IMG/VR virus record: IMGVR_UViG_2534681935_000039
Span: 1-30,262 of that record
DNA length: 30,262 nucleotides
Origin: a virus
Lineage: Duplodnaviria > Heunggongvirae > Uroviricota > Caudoviricetes
Strand: one strand, 5' to 3'
Positions 2,025 through 30,262 of the stretch are shown piece after piece; positions within the stretch are counted from its first letter, which is position 1, and each line of letters starts with the position of its first letter. The translations under genes and the position numbers were made by a program. The notes below the pieces were generated by a model. The model had not been told where the DNA came from and ran no database searches. It saw only the letters and a list, made by a program, of their open reading frames with translations.

Positions 2025-2626
2025 TGCGGAATATCTCCGGAGAATCTCTGACGTTTCTGTGTCAGATTAAGAACAACGGGAGAACCATCATCTTTCAGCA
2101 GATAACCAGTACCAAGTTTCACCAGGTACTGACTATCGCCGTAACTTTGCAAACCATACTGACCAGGCGGTGTTTTTATCCCGGAGCCGACAACTTGTTC
2201 ATTCCAAGCCTGATTAGCCTGCTTATCGAATTGCTCTGCAGACATTCCCCACGGCAAAAGGACATTCCCCATTCCGTTATAGTCATGCACGCCACCTGTA
2301 GCTACGTTAACAGCCTGTTTCCAGACATCATTGTCAATTTCGCCTGATACCACGCCTTTTTTCGCCATCACACCAGCGTAATAATCCTTTGCGATCTCGT
2401 ATGCCATTGATGCCCCCTGAGCGTCACCAGCAAATGCATCCTTCACCATGTCAGAAAACTCAAGGCGAAGATCAGCATCTTTAGGCATCGGAATACCTTT
2501 CGCATCATCAGTACCTTTACGAGCCGCCGCGCCAGTAAGAATTGTCTGCGCAGCGGTTTCAGGAGACACGGAAACATCAGGATTAAACCAGTTTTTTTCT
2601 GCCAAAATACCACCAGGCTTATCCAT
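2021..2626 (-). CDS. hypothetical virion protein (201 aa from ATG 2626; ORF track extends to GTG 2692)
   Basis: ATG 2626-2624 overlaps stop of 2626..3477 as TGATG, suggesting translational coupling; same operon. Confidence 0.4.
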   Translation of the reverse strand: MDKPGGILAEKNWFNPDVSVSPETAAQTILTGAAARKGTDDAKGIPMPKDADLRLEFSDMVKDAFAGDAQGASMAYEIAKDYYAGVMAKKGVVSGEIDNDVWKQAVNVATGGVHDYNGMGNVLLPWGMSAEQFDKQANQAWNEQVVGSGIKTPPGQYGLQSYGDSQYLVKLGTGYLLKDDGSPVVLNLTQKRQRFSGDIPQ

Positions 2627-3477
2627 CAGTATCCCGGCAACGGCAGCAGATGGAGCGTTGGCACTGATCTGCTGTAGCGCTGACATATACACCTGCCCAC
2701 CACCAGTGCTCTGCCTGATGGTATCGAGATATGCTGCCTGTTGGGAAACTGGAGCATCACGAAGAAAACACCGATCTGATTGGCCTCGTCTTTGGAAAAG
2801 AACGTCAGTGGAGTGCCATATGACTTAGCAAGGTCACTGACCTGAGCGGCACGCAAGGCAACGCTCTGTCCAAAGTTATCCTTATTGCTCATGTCGATAG
2901 GCTTTGCCTGTCCGGAGGCAAGAGAGAACTGCACAGGATCCGACTGCCGCTGCTTTATCACCTGATTTGCAGCCGAAACAACGTTGTCATAAAGAGCTGC
3001 GCGTGCCGCATACCCCTCCCCTGTATCACCAGTATCCGGGCGTAATTGCTCAACATATGCTGTAATGCTGCTTGTCGGCATGTTGCGGAAAGAGCCTATA
3101 TACTGTCCGGCGATCTGCGTATTCTTAAACTCGGTATATCGCAGGTTTCCTTCTCTGACTCCATAAGCTGCAATAAAATCAGCCTCACCAGGTGGGTTAG
3201 GAAATTCAACTCCACGCATATACGCAACTGTCGCATCTCGAACCCGGCTGTCAATCATCGTTTTATATTCAGCCTGCTGCTGCCGACGCAGTTGATCCGC
3301 CTGCCGCATAAAACTTGCCTGCGCCTCAGAAGATGCCGCATCGAATGCTGCATTACCGGTATAGCGTTTGGTGTTGGTTGGAATTGTTGATAAACCAAGT
3401 GCAGCACTGACACCAGCAGTTAACTGCTGATCACTGTATGGCTGGCTACCGTTCTCATGATGGATAATGGCTAGCAC
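2626..3477 (-). CDS. hypothetical virion protein (283 aa); C-terminal ~40 residues look atypical
   Basis: ORF track; see finding on possible frameshift into the 2021..2692 frame near 2755-2830. Confidence 0.4.
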   Translation of the reverse strand: MLAIIHHENGSQPYSDQQLTAGVSAALGLSTIPTNTKRYTGNAAFDAASSEAQASFMRQADQLRRQQQAEYKTMIDSRVRDATVAYMRGVEFPNPPGEADFIAAYGVREGNLRYTEFKNTQIAGQYIGSFRNMPTSSITAYVEQLRPDTGDTGEGYAARAALYDNVVSAANQVIKQRQSDPVQFSLASGQAKPIDMSNKDNFGQSVALRAAQVSDLAKSYGTPLTFFSKDEANQIGVFFVMLQFPNRQHISIPSGRALVVGRCICQRYSRSVPTLHLLPLPGY

Positions 3478-24449: not shown

Positions 24450-24478
24450 ATAATAAATATTCACCCATAAGGTAACAA
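24450..24478 (-). promoter_or_regulatory. pR-like promoter (minus strand): -35 TTGTTA, 17-bp spacer, -10 TATTAT
   Basis: Read on minus strand at 24478-24473 and 24455-24450; operator S6 occupies the spacer. Confidence 0.45.
24461..24475. promoter_or_regulatory. operator-like dyad S6: TCACCC-ATA-AGGTAA (one mismatch)
   Basis: Within the spacer of the pR-like promoter. Confidence 0.45.
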
Positions 24479-24491
24479 AAATCAAGGATAG

Positions 24492-24506
24492 TTACCTATG
24501 AGGTGC
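24492..24506. promoter_or_regulatory. operator-like dyad S7: TTACCT-ATG-AGGTGC (two mismatches in right half)
   Basis: Centre 31 bp from S6 and 17 bp from S8. Confidence 0.4.
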
Positions 24507-24508
24507 AT

Positions 24509-24523
24509 TTACCTGTTGGGTAA
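24509..24523. promoter_or_regulatory. operator-like dyad S8: TTACCT-GTT-GGGTAA
   Basis: Third site of the divergent immunity region, nearest the repressor gene. Confidence 0.5.
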
Positions 24524-24578: not shown

Positions 24579-25163
24579 ATGAAAAGTATCCAGGACGTCC
24601 GCAGGCAAAATCTCAACGACTTGATCGACCGTGAATTCAATGGTGTTCAGACGCGGATGGCTGAAAAACTTGGAACTCAGGCAAATCTGGTAAACCGCTG
24701 GGCTCTTGGCAAGAAGGTTATCGGCGACCAGGTTGCGCGAAAAATTGAAGCTGCCGCCAATAAACCCCGTAACTGGCTTGATATCGATCGCTCGCTTTCT
24801 CAGGAAGGTTTTCAGCCTGTCGGACCAAGCGACATTGGTCAGCTGGCGGCTCACAACCTGGAACGCTGGATGAGCGAAAGCCGCGACCTTTCAACACAGG
24901 GAAAACTTCACCGCGCATCCGGCGTAGCCCAGGTGACAATCAGCCGCCTGTTAAACAATGAGGTCAGCGTTTCCATTTCCACCCTGGAGAATGTTGCATC
25001 CGCATTCGGGCGTCACGGCTATGAATTACTGATTCACCCGCACGACCCTGCGACCATCAACTATGATCGCTCGCGCTACGCATTGTTACCCGAAACCGAG
25101 AAAGCAAAGATCGAAAGTTACATTGAATTTGTCATCAACCAGAACGAAAAAAACAAACAATAA
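24579..25163 (+). CDS. prophage repressor candidate with two tandem HTH (XRE-like) domains and no recognisable LexA/S24 peptidase domain (194 aa)
   Basis: N-terminal QTRMAEKLGTQANLVNRWALGKK and second LSTQGKLHRASGVAQVTISRLLN HTH-like segments; divergent from the cro-like gene; own terminator downstream. Confidence 0.55.
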   Translation: MKSIQDVRRQNLNDLIDREFNGVQTRMAEKLGTQANLVNRWALGKKVIGDQVARKIEAAANKPRNWLDIDRSLSQEGFQPVGPSDIGQLAAHNLERWMSESRDLSTQGKLHRASGVAQVTISRLLNNEVSVSISTLENVASAFGRHGYELLIHPHDPATINYDRSRYALLPETEKAKIESYIEFVINQNEKNKQ

Positions 25164-25183: not shown

Positions 25184-25207
25184 AAGCCGCCTTCTGGCGG
25201 CTTTTTT
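25184..25207 (+). terminator. rho-independent terminator after the repressor gene
   Basis: AAGCCGCC-TTCT-GGCGGCTT stem-loop followed by a T-run. Confidence 0.65.
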
Positions 25208-25220
25208 ATTGCCTATTTGA

Positions 25221-25235
25221 TTACCTAATGGGTAA
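25221..25235. promoter_or_regulatory. operator-like dyad S9: TTACCT-AAT-GGGTAA
   Basis: 20 bp upstream of the TTGACA -35 of the pL-like promoter. Confidence 0.5.
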
Positions 25236-25254
25236 TTTTTTTAACTCATATCTA

Positions 25255-25283
25255 TTGACATCAAACCAGATACGCATAATTAT
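25255..25283 (+). promoter_or_regulatory. pL-like promoter: -35 TTGACA (25255-25260), 17-bp spacer, -10 AATTAT (25278-25283)
   Basis: Consensus -35; -10 only moderate; flanked by S9 and S10 with the same spacing as the promoter at 22132-22160. Confidence 0.5.
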
Positions 25284-25297
25284 TACCTCAACGGTAA
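25283..25297. promoter_or_regulatory. operator-like dyad S10: TTACCT-CAA-CGGTAA
   Basis: Overlaps the last base of the -10 and the predicted transcription start. Confidence 0.5.
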
Positions 25298-25771: not shown

Positions 25772-26589
25772 AACCGGGAATTTATTTCGACATCAGCAAC
25801 GAAGACTACCACGCCGGTGACGGCGTGAGTAAGTCGCAACTGGACATGGTTGCCAAGAATCCGGCGCTTCTTAAATGGGTTCAGGCAGCACCAGAAGACG
25901 AAGAGAAAAAGTCTGCACTGGATATGGGAACCGCATTGCACTGTCTGCTTCTGGAGCCTGGAGAGTTCGACAAACGCTTCATTGTTTCACCGAAATTCGA
26001 ACGTCGGACAAAACAAGGTAAAGCTGACGAAGAAGCATTTCTTCGTGATGTGGCGGATATGGGTATTACGGTACTTGATGTCGAGCAGTGGCGAAAACTG
26101 GAGCTGATGCGTGATAGCGCAATGGCTCACCCGGCTGCACGCTGGATGCTGGAAGCACCTGGTTACTGCGAAGCATCAATGTACTGGAACGATGAAGAGA
26201 CTGGTGAGTTGTGCCGCATTCGTCCAGACAAATGGCTGAACGAGCACAACGTGATCGTCGACGTGAAAAAGGTTGCAGATATGGACCGTTTTGCACGCCA
26301 CATCGAGGAATTCCGCTACCACGTGCAGGACGCAATGTACCGCGAAGGAGCAATGAGGGTTACTGGTCAGTCGCATGGTTTTTTCTTTCTTGCCGTGAGC
26401 GAAAGCATTGATTGTGGTCGGTATCCGGTACGCGTGTTCGAGCTGGATGCACCGGATGTCGATGCCGGGCACGCTCTGTTCCGCCGGGATCTGAATACCT
26501 ATCACGAATGCCGCATCAATGATGAATGGGGCGGTGTGGAAATTATTAAACGCCCTGACTGGGCACGTAAACAGGATATGTACGTATGA
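25768..26589 (+). CDS. putative PD-(D/E)XK-type exonuclease, RecE C-terminal-domain-like (273 aa)
   Basis: N-terminal GIYFDISNEDYHAGDGVSKSQLD and IVDVKK D-x-K motif recalled from short exonuclease VIII-like prophage proteins; ATGA-coupled to the annealing protein gene. Confidence 0.5.
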   Translation: MKPGIYFDISNEDYHAGDGVSKSQLDMVAKNPALLKWVQAAPEDEEKKSALDMGTALHCLLLEPGEFDKRFIVSPKFERRTKQGKADEEAFLRDVADMGITVLDVEQWRKLELMRDSAMAHPAARWMLEAPGYCEASMYWNDEETGELCRIRPDKWLNEHNVIVDVKKVADMDRFARHIEEFRYHVQDAMYREGAMRVTGQSHGFFFLAVSESIDCGRYPVRVFELDAPDVDAGHALFRRDLNTYHECRINDEWGGVEIIKRPDWARKQDMYV

Positions 26590-27467
26590 GCAATGATATC
26601 GCAATCACATCACAACCAGGCGCAACTGTAGGCACTGCTGCGGCAATCTTCAGCCCGGAGGGCATGAATCAACTGGTGCGTTTCGCGGAGTTGATGTCAC
26701 AAAGCAAAGCTACTGTACCGAAACATCTTGAAGGCAAACCTGCCGATTGTCTGGCGGTGACCATGCAGGCGGCACAGTGGGGAATGAACCCTTTCGCCGT
26801 GGCGCAAAAAACGCATGTGGTAAACGGAACGTTAGGCTACGAAGCACAGTTGGTAAACGCGGTCGTATCCTCTTCCAGCCTGCTAGCGACACGCCTGAAT
26901 TATCGCTGGAGCGGTGACTGGTCGAATGTTAACGGCAAAACAGATAAATCACCGAATCTGACGGTAACTGTGTCAGCGGTTCTTAAAGGAGAAGCAGAAC
27001 CCCGTGAGCTTACCATCAGTATGGCGCAAGCCGGAGTGCGTAACTCTCCATTGTGGGAACAGGATCCGCGCCAGCAGCTTGCCTATCTTTGCACGAAACG
27101 ATGGGCTCGCCTGCACGCTCCTGATGTACTTCTTGGTGTTTACACCCCTGACGAATTACAGGAAACGGCACCGCGCGTTGAGCGAGACATTACTCCGCAA
27201 ACGACCACTGCTGCGGGAATGAACAGTCTGATCAACGCTAAACAAGTGAAAAAGCCTGATGAGCAAACGCGTAAAGCGGATAGCCGTGATCCAGAAGAAA
27301 TGCTAATGGCCTTTACCAGCGCAGCGATGAATTACAGCACTGTCTCCGAACTGGATAAAGCTTACAAATACATTGCACAAAAACTTTCAGATGATGACGA
27401 ACTGCTGGCAAAAGCCACCGACGTTTACAGCGTTCGTCGGGAAGAATTAAACGAAACATCTATGTAA
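26586..27467 (+). CDS. single-strand annealing protein, Bet/RecT family (293 aa)
   Basis: AAQWGMNPF and ERDITP blocks parallel lambda Bet (ANQYGLNPW, ERDITP) as recalled; gene pair with upstream exonuclease. Confidence 0.65.
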   Translation: MSNDIAITSQPGATVGTAAAIFSPEGMNQLVRFAELMSQSKATVPKHLEGKPADCLAVTMQAAQWGMNPFAVAQKTHVVNGTLGYEAQLVNAVVSSSSLLATRLNYRWSGDWSNVNGKTDKSPNLTVTVSAVLKGEAEPRELTISMAQAGVRNSPLWEQDPRQQLAYLCTKRWARLHAPDVLLGVYTPDELQETAPRVERDITPQTTTAAGMNSLINAKQVKKPDEQTRKADSRDPEEMLMAFTSAAMNYSTVSELDKAYKYIAQKLSDDDELLAKATDVYSVRREELNETSM

Positions 27468-27516
27468 CCACCACCGCGGCGCCACGCGCGCCGCACTGCA
27501 ACCAAGAGAGGTATTT

Positions 27517-27765
27517 ATGAAAGGTGCATTAGGTAAGAAGGAACTCCTGGCGGTGGTGCCACTGTCATGGAGCACTATCGACCGTATGGAGCGCGCAGGG
27601 GAATTTCCTAAACGCTGGTATATCACCGATAAACGCTGCGCATGGAACCGTGATGAAGTTGAGCGTTGGCTTGATGAACGTCAGGCAGCAAGCCCAGCAG
27701 AGTTCCAGGGTAAAAAACCTCCTGTTCAGCAACGTGTATATCGTCCCGTGAGCAACGCGGCATGA
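27517..27765 (+). CDS. AlpA-like small DNA-binding protein, candidate excisionase/regulator (82 aa)
   Basis: SWSTIDRMERAGEFPKRWYITDKRCAWNRDEVERWL resembles the AlpA/Xis-type HTH pattern; GAGAGG RBS. Confidence 0.5.
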   Translation: MKGALGKKELLAVVPLSWSTIDRMERAGEFPKRWYITDKRCAWNRDEVERWLDERQAASPAEFQGKKPPVQQRVYRPVSNAA

Positions 27766-27874
27766 GTGTGCTGCTAAGGCACTGGAGCAAATGGTCAGGA
27801 TGGTACTTATTCCTGGCCTCTGTTTCAGCATGGCTTTATCTGCTGGCATTAATTTTCAGAGAGGGTTGGATTAA

Positions 27875-28174
27875 GTGAGAAAGTTAAGCCGACTTGAAAA
27901 ATATCACATGAACAAGGTTTCAATGCGCAGTCCGTCAAAGATTGTCGCCGTTACTCCTGCGGCGATAGAGATCGAAAAACGCGCGATTGAAAGAGAGAAA
28001 AAAGGGCAGTTCCGCATTTCCGCTCACCTTTGGCTTCAGTGTATGGATGTCGCTTCTGGTGATGTTGAGCGTGCAAGGATCGCGGTTCGCAGGGACCAAT
28101 GTATCACAAAAGGTAACGGCCTTCGCCGTGGCGACTATAGCGGTATAGGATGTTGTGGAGTGGTTTATGACTAA
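27875..28174 (+). CDS. hypothetical protein (99 aa, GTG start)
   Basis: ORF track; its last codons overlap the methyltransferase start region. Confidence 0.35.
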   Translation: MRKLSRLEKYHMNKVSMRSPSKIVAVTPAAIEIEKRAIEREKKGQFRISAHLWLQCMDVASGDVERARIAVRRDQCITKGNGLRRGDYSGIGCCGVVYD

Positions 28175-28817
28175 GAAATACACACTAATCTATGCAGATC
28201 CACCCTGGGTATACCGGGACAAAGCCGCAGATGGTAATCGCGGTGCCGGTTTTAAATATCCGGTTATGAGTGTGCTGGATATCTGCCGCCTTCCTGTGTG
28301 GGATTTGACCGCTGAAAACTGTCTGTTGGCCATGTGGTGGGTGCCAACACAACCACTCGAAGCACTAAAAGTTGTTGAAGCCTGGGGATTTCGTCTGATG
28401 ACGATGAAGGGCTTCACGTGGATAAAATGTGGTAGTCGACAACCAGATAAACTGGTTATGGGTATGGGTCACATGACTCGTGCCAATAGTGAAGATTGCC
28501 TGTTTGCAGTAAAGGGAAAACTACCTCCGCGCATTAATGCAGGGATCGTTCAGTCATTTACCGCACCGCGGCTTGAGCATTCAAGAAAACCAGATGTCGT
28601 TCGTGAAAAACTTGTGCAATTGTTAGGCGATGTTTCTCGCATTGAACTGTTCGCCCGCCAGTCGTCTCATGGCTTCGATGTTTGGGGTAATCAGTGCGAA
28701 GACCCGGCAGTGCAACTACACCCTGGATACGCGTTGGATATCGGCGGATTAACAAATGCATTCAGCAATGCTCCGCTGTCACCAACAGACAACCAGGGGC
28801 GGGAGCGTGCAGCATGA
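28155..28817 (+). CDS. N6-adenine DNA methyltransferase, MT-A70 / phage Dam-like (220 aa; alternative start ATG 28167)
   Basis: Catalytic DPPW motif in LIYADPPWVY near the N-terminus; no adjacent restriction endonuclease recognised, so apparently orphan. Confidence 0.7.
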   Translation: MEWFMTKKYTLIYADPPWVYRDKAADGNRGAGFKYPVMSVLDICRLPVWDLTAENCLLAMWWVPTQPLEALKVVEAWGFRLMTMKGFTWIKCGSRQPDKLVMGMGHMTRANSEDCLFAVKGKLPPRINAGIVQSFTAPRLEHSRKPDVVREKLVQLLGDVSRIELFARQSSHGFDVWGNQCEDPAVQLHPGYALDIGGLTNAFSNAPLSPTDNQGRERAA

Positions 28818-29008
28818 ACAGGGCATCACCAGCAGATTTAAGGAAATGCCTTGAAACTGCAAACATGCTTGCACACAGCGGGATCAGGTTTGTTCCAATT
28901 CCCGCTGTCACTGATGCTGAATTTGCAACACTGTCAGCAATATTCACAGATAAAATTGAATCACTGGCAGCAGAAGCCGAGATGGAAGAAAATCAGCAGA
29001 ATAATTAA
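28814..29008 (+). CDS. small hypothetical protein (64 aa from ATG 28814)
   Basis: ATGA overlap with methyltransferase stop; the ORF-track frame 28694..29008 is the same frame with an unlikely upstream extension. Confidence 0.35.
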   Translation: MNRASPADLRKCLETANMLAHSGIRFVPIPAVTDAEFATLSAIFTDKIESLAAEAEMEENQQNN

Positions 29009-29011
29009 ACG

Positions 29012-30262
29012 TTATTCCCCCGCCATCCACTTCTCAAACTTCGACGGGGAGAACGGAATCAGATCCGTATGCTCCCCGTTAATCCAGGAATCAATCATAT
29101 CGGCCCACTGCTGCAACATGTAGGCGCGCTGTCTAGCGTATTCCGCTTTGTTATATACGGCGCGCACACCTTTCTGCTCATGTGCCAGAGCCTTTTCAAT
29201 CCAGTCTGAAGGATAACCAGCCTCATGCAACAACGTACTGGCTGTACGGCGCATATCATGTACAGTGAAGTCCTGAATATGCTCACCATCTTCATTTATT
29301 ATTTTCACCGTTCTGTCGATCAGAGAGTTCAGCGCGGCATTAGATAATGGCTTCCGGAAGTTGTAACGACCAGGAACCAGATATTCACTTCCACCAGCGC
29401 ACATCTGCAACCCGACCAATATATCCTGAGCCTGTTTAGGCAGGTAAATAACATGCGCCCGGCTTCCCTTCATGCGGTCTGAAGGAATTGTCCATGTCCA
29501 TTTTTTAAAATCTATTTCATCCCACGTTGCATTGGTGAATTCGCCCTTACGAACCATAGTGATAATCACCAGTTTTAAAGCCATTTTCATAGTTCCCATA
29601 GCACCAATGGCATCCAACGTGCGGAAGAACAGGCCAATTTCTTCTGGTGTCAGTGTTCGCTCTCGTGGTTTAAATATGGCGATAGACGAAGGTTTAATGT
29701 CAGCCGCAGGATTAAACAAACCATGACCACGGTCATTGGCGTGACGGTATACGCTGCTGATGATCTCCCTGGCCTGTACTGCTGTTGCCCGACCACCGCG
29801 TTCGACAATCCGGTCACACAAATCACGAACCATCAATGTGGTAATTTCAGCCATCATTTTGTTGCCAAGAACCGGAAGTATGTCACGGTCGATCACCGCC
29901 TGCTTCATTGCGCGGGTACTGTCAGCCAGGATGACGTGTTTCATATAACTGTCGGTATGTACCGCAAACGTCTCGGCACCACGAATCTTTTTGATACCGT
30001 CACGTTTAGCCGCAGCCGGCGACTGGCCTGCTTTAAGCAGCTTCTTTGCAGCAATCAGTTCTTCCCGCGCTTCTGCCAGGCTGATACCGTCACGCCCATA
30101 CTGCCCGATTACCAGTGTTTCGCGGCGACCGTTGATACGGTAGTCATAGCGAAACGAGACCGTACCTGACGTAAGCACAGCTACATACAGCCCGTCACGA
30201 TCGGAGACTTTGTATAGTTTGTCCTGCGGCTTGAGGTTTTTTAATTTTGTATCGGTAAGCAC
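29012..30262 (-). CDS. int: tyrosine integrase, N-terminus truncated by window end (416 aa in window)
   Basis: N-terminal LTDTKLKNLKPQDKLYKVSDRDGLY arm-binding pattern typical of P4/lambda-type integrases; C-terminal H-x-x-R (HDMRRTAST) and tyrosine region (VRAVYNKAEY); reading frame still open at 30262. Confidence 0.8.
   Translation of the reverse strand: MLTDTKLKNLKPQDKLYKVSDRDGLYVAVLTSGTVSFRYDYRINGRRETLVIGQYGRDGISLAEAREELIAAKKLLKAGQSPAAAKRDGIKKIRGAETFAVHTDSYMKHVILADSTRAMKQAVIDRDILPVLGNKMMAEITTLMVRDLCDRIVERGGRATAVQAREIISSVYRHANDRGHGLFNPAADIKPSSIAIFKPRERTLTPEEIGLFFRTLDAIGAMGTMKMALKLVIITMVRKGEFTNATWDEIDFKKWTWTIPSDRMKGSRAHVIYLPKQAQDILVGLQMCAGGSEYLVPGRYNFRKPLSNAALNSLIDRTVKIINEDGEHIQDFTVHDMRRTASTLLHEAGYPSDWIEKALAHEQKGVRAVYNKAEYARQRAYMLQQWADMIDSWINGEHTDLIPFSPSKFEKWMAGE

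Follow-up and report, generated by a model that had tools for sequence, protein, structure and literature searches.

Genes and predicted expression of the early-left operon

The window analysed here, a stretch of 30,262 nucleotides, belongs to a temperate podovirus of the phiV10/epsilon15 type, which resides as a prophage at guaA of E. coli. It is 97-98% identical to phiV10-type phages, and the same block is present in some 540 complete genomes of E. coli (564 E. coli records), in which guaA adjoins int and the gene studied here is annotated as "MT-A70 family methyltransferase". Integration at the 3' end of guaA has been described for this type of prophage (PMC9782041). The features of the locus are as follows.

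25255..25283, + strand: candidate pL-like promoter of the early-left operon (consensus scan, 10/12 matches; putative function)
27517..27765, + strand: AlpA-family/excisionase-like gene (82 aa), first gene of an overlap-chained block
27762..27878, + strand: ORF for a small membrane protein of 38 aa (PHROG 17484, 4.7e-27)
27875..28174, + strand: PerC-family small protein (99 aa, GTG start)
28167..28817, + strand: predicted orphan MT-A70-family N6-adenine methyltransferase (216 aa)
28175..29012, no strand: exchangeable "methylase slot", in which DNA homology with sister prophages is interrupted
28814..29008, + strand: DUF1382 small protein (64 aa; Pfam DUF1382, 1.4e-30; PHROG 292)
29012..30262, - strand: tyrosine integrase (416 aa; Pfam Arm-DNA-bind_3, Phage_int_M and Phage_integrase)

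Operator-like palindromes of the type ATTACC-N4-GGTAA lie beside or over the candidate promoter, at 25220-25235 and 25282-25297 (repeat family D1/D2/I5), and the same type of palindrome is found at 24508-24523, beside the start of the repressor gene. This repressor gene (24579-25163) is followed by a terminator-like hairpin (25184-25203) and then by the pL-like candidate. Judged from these signals, the early-left operon appears to start at the operator-flanked pL-like promoter. It comprises recombination genes (a PD-(D/E)XK nuclease and RecT), the excisionase-like AlpA, PerC, and the methyltransferase as penultimate cistron, the DUF1382 gene being the last. A scan of 27400-29100 revealed no promoter-like site, promoter and operator assignments having been made by consensus matching only, which an unrecognised internal promoter might escape. 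The position of the methyltransferase gene in the early-left operon, together with the pL-like site upstream and the lack of a promoter-like site close to the gene, suggests that it would be expressed on induction or infection and not in the lysogen. A preliminary description had assigned it to a "lysogeny arm" and had considered a marking of host DNA in the lysogen, which does not fit an early-left gene with a predicted pL-like start. Scanned for Rfam families and tRNAs, the window yields a tRNA-Arg only, which is unrelated to the methyltransferase.

The genes for the AlpA-like protein, the 38-aa protein, PerC, the methyltransferase and the DUF1382 protein are linked by consecutive overlaps of 4-8 nt. 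The AlpA-like protein matches Pfam Phage_AlpA (3.1e-5) and PHROG 66 (excisionase and transcriptional regulator; 2e-16). The 38-aa ORF, which is joined to the AlpA-like gene by ATGA and to the PerC gene by GTGA, is kept in Tyrion (gp33) and in epsilon15 (gp32). For the PerC ORF, RefSeq assigns the start to ATG 27923 (27923-28174, 83 aa), but the 99-aa reading is preferred here because conservation with epsilon15 gp31 and Tyrion gp32 extends over its first 16 residues. This 99-aa protein matches Pfam PerC (PF06069) with residues 35-80 (27.5 bits versus a cut-off of 22.6) and PHROG 868 ("transcriptional activator") over its full length (1-99; 1.9e-61). Its ORF overlaps the methyltransferase gene by 8 nt (ATGACTAA, 28167-28174), or by 20 nt if the methyltransferase started at GTG 28155, and at the other end the methyltransferase stop codon TGA (28815-28817) and the ATG at 28814 of the 64-aa ORF form an ATGA. 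The integrase gene is convergent with the operon and ends 3 nt past the 64-aa ORF.

These ORFs, their overlaps and their location beside the integrase had been recognised previously, and the coordinates agree. The overlaps around the methyltransferase are real but nothing special, and reflect generic operon packing: in 37 related loci, the methyltransferase start mostly overlaps the upstream gene, whatever its kind, by 1-11 nt. A modulation of the enzyme by the small ORFs, as had been proposed, has a published precedent in PNB-2 of Stx phage PA8 (PMC10810198). However, such overlaps are generic, neither small ORF of the window is related to PNB-2, and in close relatives PerC and the methyltransferase are separated by other, inserted genes. 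Nor is the DUF1382 gene conserved beside the methyltransferase in relatives.

Although the methyltransferase ORF is listed as 28155-28817, its start is likely ATG 28167 (MTKKYTLIYADPPW...), which is preceded by GGAG 9 nt upstream and agrees with the N-terminus of all homologues. The codons at 28197-28208 specify D11-P12-P13-W14, the catalytic motif IV (DPPW), of which W14 is invariant and D, P and P are nearly invariant across 36 homologues. The conserved core comprises aa 1-187, while the C-terminal tail (aa 188-216; 28728-28814) is variable and is modelled with low confidence. Among IMG/VR copies of the gene, 77 of 80 are intact, and a pN/pS of 0.16 (within-lineage and Stx-phage values were used; the Tyrion/epsilon15 comparison was dropped due to indel misalignment) accompanies this; the gene is under purifying selection.

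Family, relatives and genomic slot of the methyltransferase

The sole Pfam match of the methyltransferase is MT-A70 (PF05063; 1.2e-21, 77.9 bits versus a cut-off of 23.9), and this profile is matched in its full length (positions 1-172 of 172). The Dam families of Pfam (PF05869 and PF02086) give no match, and no NCBIfam model does. A sequence search of the PDB yields MTA1 and METTL3, and MTA1, a DNA 6mA enzyme, matches equally well or better. Foldseek searches with the AF2 model (pLDDT 77, pTM 0.77; low confidence in the loops aa 20-29 and 100-105) place METTL3 chains as top structural neighbours (E 1.6e-14, TM 0.66-0.70), with MTA1c at E about 1e-14. METTL3-METTL14, which forms m6A in mRNA, and ciliate (Tetrahymena) MTA1c, which forms 6mA in DNA, have the fold and DPPW in common with the window enzyme at an identity of about 20-25%. 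Both are, however, obligate heteromers, each including a non-catalytic MT-A70 paralogue and further subunits that bind nucleic acids, whereas no MT-A70 paralogue is encoded in the window. The adenine methyltransferase with DPPW motif of the preliminary description is confirmed by the HMM assignment to MT-A70. An alignment to a non-DNA methyltransferase had been named there as an argument against DNA modification, and on this point the outcome is ambiguous, as the nearest structures include METTL3, which acts on RNA, as well as MTA1, which acts on DNA, and the nearest studied homologue has been credited with both GATC-DNA and 16S-rRNA activity.

Among the other ORFs of the window, no restriction endonuclease or defence family was detected, and the RefSeq annotation of the same prophage includes no restriction nuclease. 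The only PD-(D/E)XK protein of the window is the exonuclease partner of RecT. Since PerC and DUF1382 genes are the neighbours of the methyltransferase, instead of the cognate endonuclease of a Type II restriction-modification system, its earlier designation as an orphan holds within the window. These findings establish its family, fold, catalytic motif, orphan status and operon position, whereas methyl transfer itself is predicted for this MT-A70-type, beta-class N6-adenine methyltransferase. The gene is already known: RefSeq names it correctly, and the published genomes of phiV10, epsilon15 and O157 typing phages contain it. Within this E. coli prophage family, which is very common, it is a routine accessory gene.

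The Uetakevirus phages epsilon15 (Salmonella) and phiV10 (E. coli) carry the same gene at the same operon position, in the order exonuclease, RecT, AlpA-like protein, 38-aa ORF, PerC-like protein, methylase and convergent int. Their methylases are 78% (epsilon15) and about 98% (phiV10, locus L112) identical to that of the window. In epsilon15 and Tyrion, extra small genes (a 35-aa ORF, or DUF1317 and a wHTH protein) are located between PerC and methylase, and the ORFs downstream of the methylase are unlike that of the window. In the literature searched, we found no experimental characterisation of the epsilon15, phiV10 or Tyrion methylases.

The closest biochemically studied homologue is M.EcoGV/M.EcoPA8orf6770P from Stx2a-converting phages (Oslovirus PA2/PA8; E. 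coli O104:H4 C227-11), to which the core (aa 1-187) is 83% identical. Its locus (L002) was confirmed as being of the PA2/PA8 type by the terminator string of PMC10810198 at L002:2520. Both enzymes are orphan, prophage-borne MT-A70 proteins with DPPW, and both are encoded in the early-left region, close to its int end, by genes whose start codon is overlapped by a small upstream gene. They differ in phage type (Stx lambdoid phage versus epsilon15-like podovirus) and in size (208 versus 216 aa), and their alignment stops at residue 187, beyond which the tails are unrelated (window, YALDIGGLTNAFSNAPLSPTDNQGRERAA; Stx, IVKFLEKTNERKNDVDKGITS). In the Stx phage, the gene for PNB-2 (118 aa, wHTH-like) lies after a terminator and precedes the methyltransferase gene, whereas the window has a PerC-family gene instead. 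BLASTP of the PerC ORF against PNB-2 gives no alignment, tblastn of PNB-2, the Tyrion wHTH protein gp30 and DUF1317 against the window finds nothing, and about 150 related loci besides the Stx-phage locus contain no PNB-2 homologue.

M.EcoGV, the representative from O104:H4, is listed as GATC-specific according to PacBio sequencing after plasmid expression, an assignment given here second-hand, through two later papers (PMC6602927; PMC10810198). In contrast, the purified Stx-phage homologue displays almost no activity with DNA, dam- DNA included, but as a 1:1 complex with PNB-2, encoded immediately upstream, it is reported to prefer 16S rRNA/30S more than 13-fold over DNA, as judged by SAM consumption, the modified rRNA base never having been mapped (PMC10810198). 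The C-terminal ~27 residues of the STEC type are a proposed requirement for PNB-2 binding (PMC10810198). The role of the Stx-phage orthologue is in dispute: one view makes it a GATC DNA methylase, the other a methyltransferase of 16S rRNA through which prophage induction and virulence increase. The phiV10-type copy, a natural variant without the proposed partner for RNA targeting, would offer a clean control for this dispute.

Comparison with sister prophages by blastn reveals breakpoints at 28174 (the PerC stop codon) and at 29013-29023 (the 3' end of int). All 11 sister prophages identified by way of PerC encode an adenine methyltransferase in the slot between them, i.e., MT-A70 (5), a PF05869 Dam (3) or a C5+Dam fusion (3), and are otherwise syntenic. 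The Dam variant is 48% identical to the Stx-phage Dam and about 40% to dam genes of T1-like phages. The T1/VT2-type phage Dam (PF05869, e.g., M.EcoVT2Dam) is thus an orphan phage adenine methyltransferase that occupies exactly the same slot, and M.EcoVT2Dam is GATC-specific (PMC6602927). It belongs to an unrelated sequence family (PF05869 versus PF05063), and the presumed equivalence is positional. Occupation of the slot by T1/VT2-type Dam or the C5+Dam fusion favours a Dam-like DNA function for the window enzyme, and the presence of some adenine methyltransferase in every sampled phage of the lineage suggests that the activity is selected, whichever family supplies it.

Probable substrate of the methyltransferase

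We consider it somewhat more probable than not (roughly 0.55) that the gene encodes an orphan MT-A70 methyltransferase with a Dam-like GATC function, situated in an exchangeable slot at the distal end of a repressor-controlled early-left operon. Once the prophage is induced or a cell is infected, transcription would start at the pL-like promoter and proceed through the genes for the PD-(D/E)XK nuclease, RecT and the excisionase-like AlpA, and the 4-8 nt overlaps might hand ribosomes from one cistron to the next. Homology and slot equivalence point to adenine methylation of DNA as the most likely activity, probably at GATC. The enzyme might then top up Dam-type methylation on fast-replicating phage DNA, and incidentally on host DNA, so that phage DNA would be shielded in new hosts from methylation-sensitive restriction that cuts at GATC. 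Targets are plentiful, as the window contains 111 GATC sites (observed/expected 0.71 by a Markov estimate), which are evenly spread and form no clusters in its regulatory regions; these statistics give no clue to the specificity of the enzyme. A GATC enzyme would be partly redundant, since E. coli already has Dam. Also, enzymes that are 83% identical can differ in specificity, and the studied enzyme has another C-terminal tail, both of which speak against a GATC reading.

These same differences from M.EcoGV, in the tail and in 17% of the core, would be compatible with a DNA adenine methyltransferase of relaxed or non-GATC specificity, which, like M.EcoGI/GII, might confer broad protection against restriction. 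Non-specific, prophage-borne adenine methyltransferases are known in E. coli (PMC7544214), and the window protein has just 216 aa, without an obvious separate target-recognition domain and with two loops (aa 20-29 and 100-105) modelled at low confidence. However, GATC is the motif assigned to the nearest homologue that has one, the other occupants of the slot belong to the T1/VT2 Dam type, and we consider relaxed specificity unlikely.

An RNA methyltransferase, which like the PA8 enzyme would act on the 16S rRNA of the host's 30S subunits and so tune translation and prophage induction, seems more improbable still. A small partner, PerC or another product of the operon, would have to direct the enzyme to this substrate. 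The preference of the Stx-phage homologue with PNB-2 for 16S rRNA/30S (PMC10810198), the METTL3 chains as top structural neighbours, and a small gene that overlaps the methyltransferase start in the window as well are in line with such a role. In contrast, PNB-2 homologues are absent from the window and the related loci, the tail tied to PNB-2 binding differs, and SAM consumption was the readout for the Stx-phage enzyme, with no base mapped. In addition, bona fide DNA methyltransferase families fill the same slot in sister prophages, and MTA1 is at least as good a sequence match as METTL3.

PerC genes upstream of methyltransferases

The sole unexplained lead is the recurrent arrangement of PerC followed by a methyltransferase. 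Members of the PerC family are known for transcriptional activation, for example of LEE1/ler. PerC-like proteins of mobile elements can act as activators or repressors or have no effect (PMC11773190). The cassette occurs in two unrelated operon contexts, early-left beside int and in the nin region after replication genes, and its recurrence spans three unrelated methyltransferase families. As some PerC genes directly upstream of MT-A70 encode wHTH-PerC fusions, these three observations together raise the improbable, though wider, idea that PerC-family small proteins are dedicated companions of phage orphan DNA-modification genes, either as controllers or as PNB-2-like targeting subunits. If this were true, PerC and MT-A70 of the window would form a heteromeric or co-regulated unit in which the small protein sets the substrate (DNA or rRNA).

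It is very doubtful that PerC and the methyltransferase of the window constitute a two-gene module, with PerC controlling expression, comparable to the C proteins of restriction-modification systems, or setting the substrate as a partner. PerC is located directly upstream of MT-A70 in the nin/early-right region of Lonsdalea, Acerihabitans, Buttiauxella, and Dryocola prophages, where some PerC genes are the wHTH-PerC fusions mentioned, and in Sodalis it is followed by genes for a PAPS-reductase-like protein, Dam, and a C5 methylase. An adenine methyltransferase lies downstream in 11/11 PerC-anchored epsilon15-like loci. However, in close relatives 1 to 3 unrelated genes separate PerC from the methyltransferase, and PerC is retained with any methyltransferase family of the slot, so that backbone synteny beside a recombination hot spot explains the arrangement better. 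Many MT-A70 loci lack PerC, some PerC loci lack a methyltransferase, and PICIs with alpA and int likewise contain PerC genes, no methyltransferase being mentioned there (PMC11773190).

In-frame PerC-methyltransferase fusions, which would favour such a module, occur rarely. The two fused proteins, P0001 (297 aa; 3 sequences) and P0003 (263 aa; 2 sequences), are 97-99% identical to the window genes. They were rejected as Rosetta-stone evidence for an interaction between the two proteins because both are rare and can be traced to deletions, of 1 nt within the TTT run of the overlap for P0001 and of an internal stretch for P0003.

Gene layout, protein family and host prophage

The arrangement of this methyltransferase gene is real, and ORF map and raw sequence agree that a DPPW-containing ORF overlaps a 99-aa ORF, shares ATGA with a 64-aa ORF and lies beside the integrase gene, as the preliminary description had it:

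27875-28174, plus strand: PerC-family ORF, 99 aa
28167-28817, plus strand: DPPW-containing methyltransferase ORF, beginning MTKKYTLIYADPPW; likeliest start ATG 28167, stop TGA 28815-28817
28814-29008, plus strand: DUF1382 ORF, 64 aa; ATGA overlap with the methyltransferase stop
29012-30262, minus strand: integrase gene, ending 3 nt past the 64-aa ORF

The ATG at 28167 has a GGAG 9 nt upstream, yields the N-terminus common to all homologues and overlaps the stop of the 99-aa ORF by 8 nt (ATGACTAA). For the PerC-family gene, RefSeq (PGAP) starts at ATG 27923, giving 83 aa. The 99-aa reading is preferable because epsilon15 gp31 and Tyrion gp32 conserve its first 16 residues, the PHROG 868 match spans residues 1-99, GTG 27875 is preceded by GAGG and the 38-aa ORF before it ends in a GTGA overlap. 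All junctions from the AlpA-like gene through DUF1382 are overlaps of 4-8 nt. In a set of 37 related loci drawn from different species, whatever gene precedes the methyltransferase overlaps its start, in most cases by 1-11 nt, and these preceding genes come from many unrelated families (NinB, DUF1317, replication and HNH proteins among them); the overlaps at the methyltransferase are therefore generic and without special meaning.

The protein belongs to the MT-A70 family (Pfam PF05063, 1.2e-21, whole profile covered). Its nearest solved structures by sequence are the Tetrahymena DNA 6mA enzyme MTA1 (~5e-13 to 2.5e-12) and human METTL3 (~2e-5), and Foldseek matches the AlphaFold2 model (pLDDT 77) to METTL3 and MTA1c (E ~1e-14). 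The upstream ORF is a PerC-family member (27.5 bits; Pfam cut-off 22.6) and the downstream one a DUF1382 protein (1.4e-30); farther upstream on the same strand follow a 38-aa membrane-protein ORF, an AlpA/excisionase-like gene, RecT and a PD-(D/E)XK exonuclease. Neither Pfam nor PADLOC places a restriction endonuclease or other defence-system family among the remaining ORFs of the window, RefSeq likewise annotates none in the same prophage, and the sole nuclease is the RecT-partner exonuclease, so that the label of an orphan adenine methyltransferase is correct. Residues 195-214 of the methyltransferase (28749-28808; LTNAFSNAPLSPTDNQGRER) resemble the C-terminal end of a small ORF that, in a Kluyvera prophage, stands by itself downstream of the methyltransferase gene (11/20 identical), which suggests that the tail, looking like a recombination scar, may have arisen by recombination or fusion. 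Residues 202-216 have a pLDDT <50 and are predicted to be disordered.

The window represents a phiV10/epsilon15-like (Uetakevirus) temperate podovirus, with 97-98% identity over 65-81% of its length to PAS61, phiv142-3, O157 typing phages 9 and 10, ZX5 and phiV10. In E. coli genomes guaA adjoins the prophage, in agreement with the published integration of phages of the same group at the 3' end of guaA (PMC9782041). Of 5426 complete E. coli genomes, 561 contain the 1.7-kb block surrounding the methyltransferase (564 records), annotated there as AlpA/HTH, PerC family, MT-A70 family methyltransferase, DUF1382 and integrase. At least 598 copies are present in IMG/VR, and of the best 80 of these 77 encode the intact 216-aa protein; pN/pS is ~0.16. 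Thus, the gene is real, under selection and previously annotated, and the element is an ordinary one. A tRNA-Arg gene (anticodon TCT) lies at 14155-14231 on the plus strand, flanked by portal and terminase genes on the minus strand. The RecT gene (26586-27467) has 882 nt in the window and 942 nt in Tyrion and in the prophage of E. coli 25-07338, which is otherwise 99.5% identical, the difference being a 60-nt length polymorphism.

An exchangeable slot for adenine methyltransferases

When the PerC gene, not the methyltransferase, was used to trace other genomes, 11 loci with the same backbone were obtained, consisting of exonuclease, RecT, AlpA-like gene, PerC, a variable slot and a convergent integrase gene, with guaA beyond the latter in all four loci reaching that far. 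An adenine methyltransferase is encoded between PerC and integrase in 11/11 loci, namely an MT-A70 protein (five), a PF05869 Dam (three) or a fusion of C5-methylase and Dam of 637-664 aa (three). DNA homology to the window ends at the PerC stop codon (28174) and restarts at 29013-29023 in the 3' end of the integrase gene. The segment 28175-29012, from PerC stop to integrase stop, is an exchangeable cassette slot. The PF05869 enzyme of the slot is 48% identical to Stx-phage Dam and ~40% to products of T1-like phage dam genes. With one family standing in for another at this position, the selected activity would seem to be Dam-type adenine methylation of DNA.

In other E. coli and Cronobacter phages (L137-L147), close MT-A70 homologues sharing 69-77% identity are found in quite different places: some are flanked by NinB and NinD/E in P22-like nin regions, and others lie downstream of the lysis cassette, with ParB-like methyltransferase genes nearby. 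The MT-A70 gene behaves as a mobile accessory module.

Expected expression and likeliest function

The region upstream of the operon contains the following features:

24459-24523 and 25220-25297: palindromes resembling operators (ATTACC-N4-GGTAA and variants), located at either end of the repressor gene
24508-24523: palindrome of the same type, next to the repressor gene start
24579-25163: repressor gene
25184-25203: terminator-like hairpin after the repressor gene
25220-25235 and 25282-25297: operator-like palindromes ATTACC-N4-GGTAA, bracketing the promoter-like site
25255-25283, plus strand: promoter-like site TTGACA-17-AATTAT, 10/12 consensus matches

The last is the only strong promoter-like site on the methyltransferase's strand, and the layout of these putative promoter and operators resembles a classical pL, as in a lambda-like pRM/pL region. 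A scan of 27400-29100 found no promoter-like site. Together with the overlap-chained junctions, this points to the methyltransferase as a delayed-early product of induction or infection, probably made by read-through from the pL-like site, and not as a lysogenic-conversion gene; the operon structure gives no support to the earlier suggestion that it marks host DNA in the lysogenic state. DUF1382 and the convergent integrase gene end 3 nt apart (29008-29012) with no terminator-like hairpin between the gene ends, so that, judging from the sequence, transcripts from both directions must overlap; the epsilon15 record has RNase III sites annotated in the equivalent region.

The likeliest function, with a probability of about 0.55, is that the enzyme would methylate phage DNA in a Dam-like manner during lytic growth. 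DNA methylation with relaxed specificity is considerably less probable.

The Stx-phage relative and the PerC neighbour

Over its core (aa 1-187), the methyltransferase shares 83% identity with the enzyme of Stx2a phages of the PA2/PA8 type, whose published locus corresponds to our comparison locus L002, where the paper's terminator string is found at position 2520 between the anti-repressor (PNB-1) and PNB-2 genes. The Stx-phage enzyme is reported to raise spontaneous induction and virulence (Gong, Chakraborty, Koudelka; PMC10810198). By itself it reportedly acts hardly at all on DNA or RNA, and with the upstream gene product PNB-2 it forms a 1:1 complex that prefers 16S rRNA and 30S subunits, the modified base not being mapped (PMC10810198). 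Two sources state that the O104:H4 orthologue M.EcoGV methylates GATC in vivo when expressed from a plasmid and that REBASE lists its group as GATC enzymes (PMC10810198, PMC6602927). The window does not share the Stx-phage features linked to the rRNA claim: its PerC ORF lacks similarity to PNB-2, no PNB-2 homologue is matched in the window or any other compared locus, and its C-terminal tail is unrelated to the Stx-enzyme tail, which the authors suspect to be needed for PNB-2 binding (PMC10810198). An rRNA methylation as claimed for the Stx orthologue is therefore unlikely here, and it is mainly the family replacement at the slot that makes us prefer DNA, with GATC as target. The window enzyme might serve as a natural PNB-2-free control for the disputed Stx-phage enzyme.

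Less probable still is a PerC-dependent mode of action, which would be compatible with the other readings, and a functional module of PerC and methyltransferase is possible but improbable to the same degree. PerC genes do occur directly upstream of MT-A70 genes elsewhere, in the order replication gene, PerC, methyltransferase, RusA, Q-like gene, in nin/early-right regions of Lonsdalea, Acerihabitans, Buttiauxella and Dryocola, three with a wHTH-PerC fusion; loci of this kind come from unrelated lambdoid prophages (L023, L025, L027, L031, L034 and L045, ~2500-3000 each). In Sodalis (L148/L149, 2501-4610), PAPS-reductase-like, Dam and C5 methylase genes come after PerC. PerC with a DNA-modification cassette behind it is a recurrent order, found in two operon contexts, and remains a lead of interest, alongside the PNB-2-free control. 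However, PerC and the methyltransferase are not adjacent in epsilon15, Tyrion and several sister prophages, where one to three unrelated genes intervene; PerC is retained whichever methyltransferase family occupies the slot; many MT-A70 genes lack a nearby PerC (those following lysis genes, or NinB in P22-like nin regions); some PerC genes lack a methyltransferase; and PICIs commonly carry PerC genes beside alpA and int (PMC11773190). Databases contain two proteins in which PerC is fused to the methyltransferase, and these are sporadic deletions. Both come from Logan assemblies and are in-frame fusions with 97-99% identity to the window genes; they could be genuine mutants or artefacts of assembly. 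One (P0001, 297 aa) has lost one T in the GTTTATG overlap, and in the other (P0003, 263 aa) an internal deletion joins PerC residue 42 to a GTG-extended methyltransferase N-terminus.
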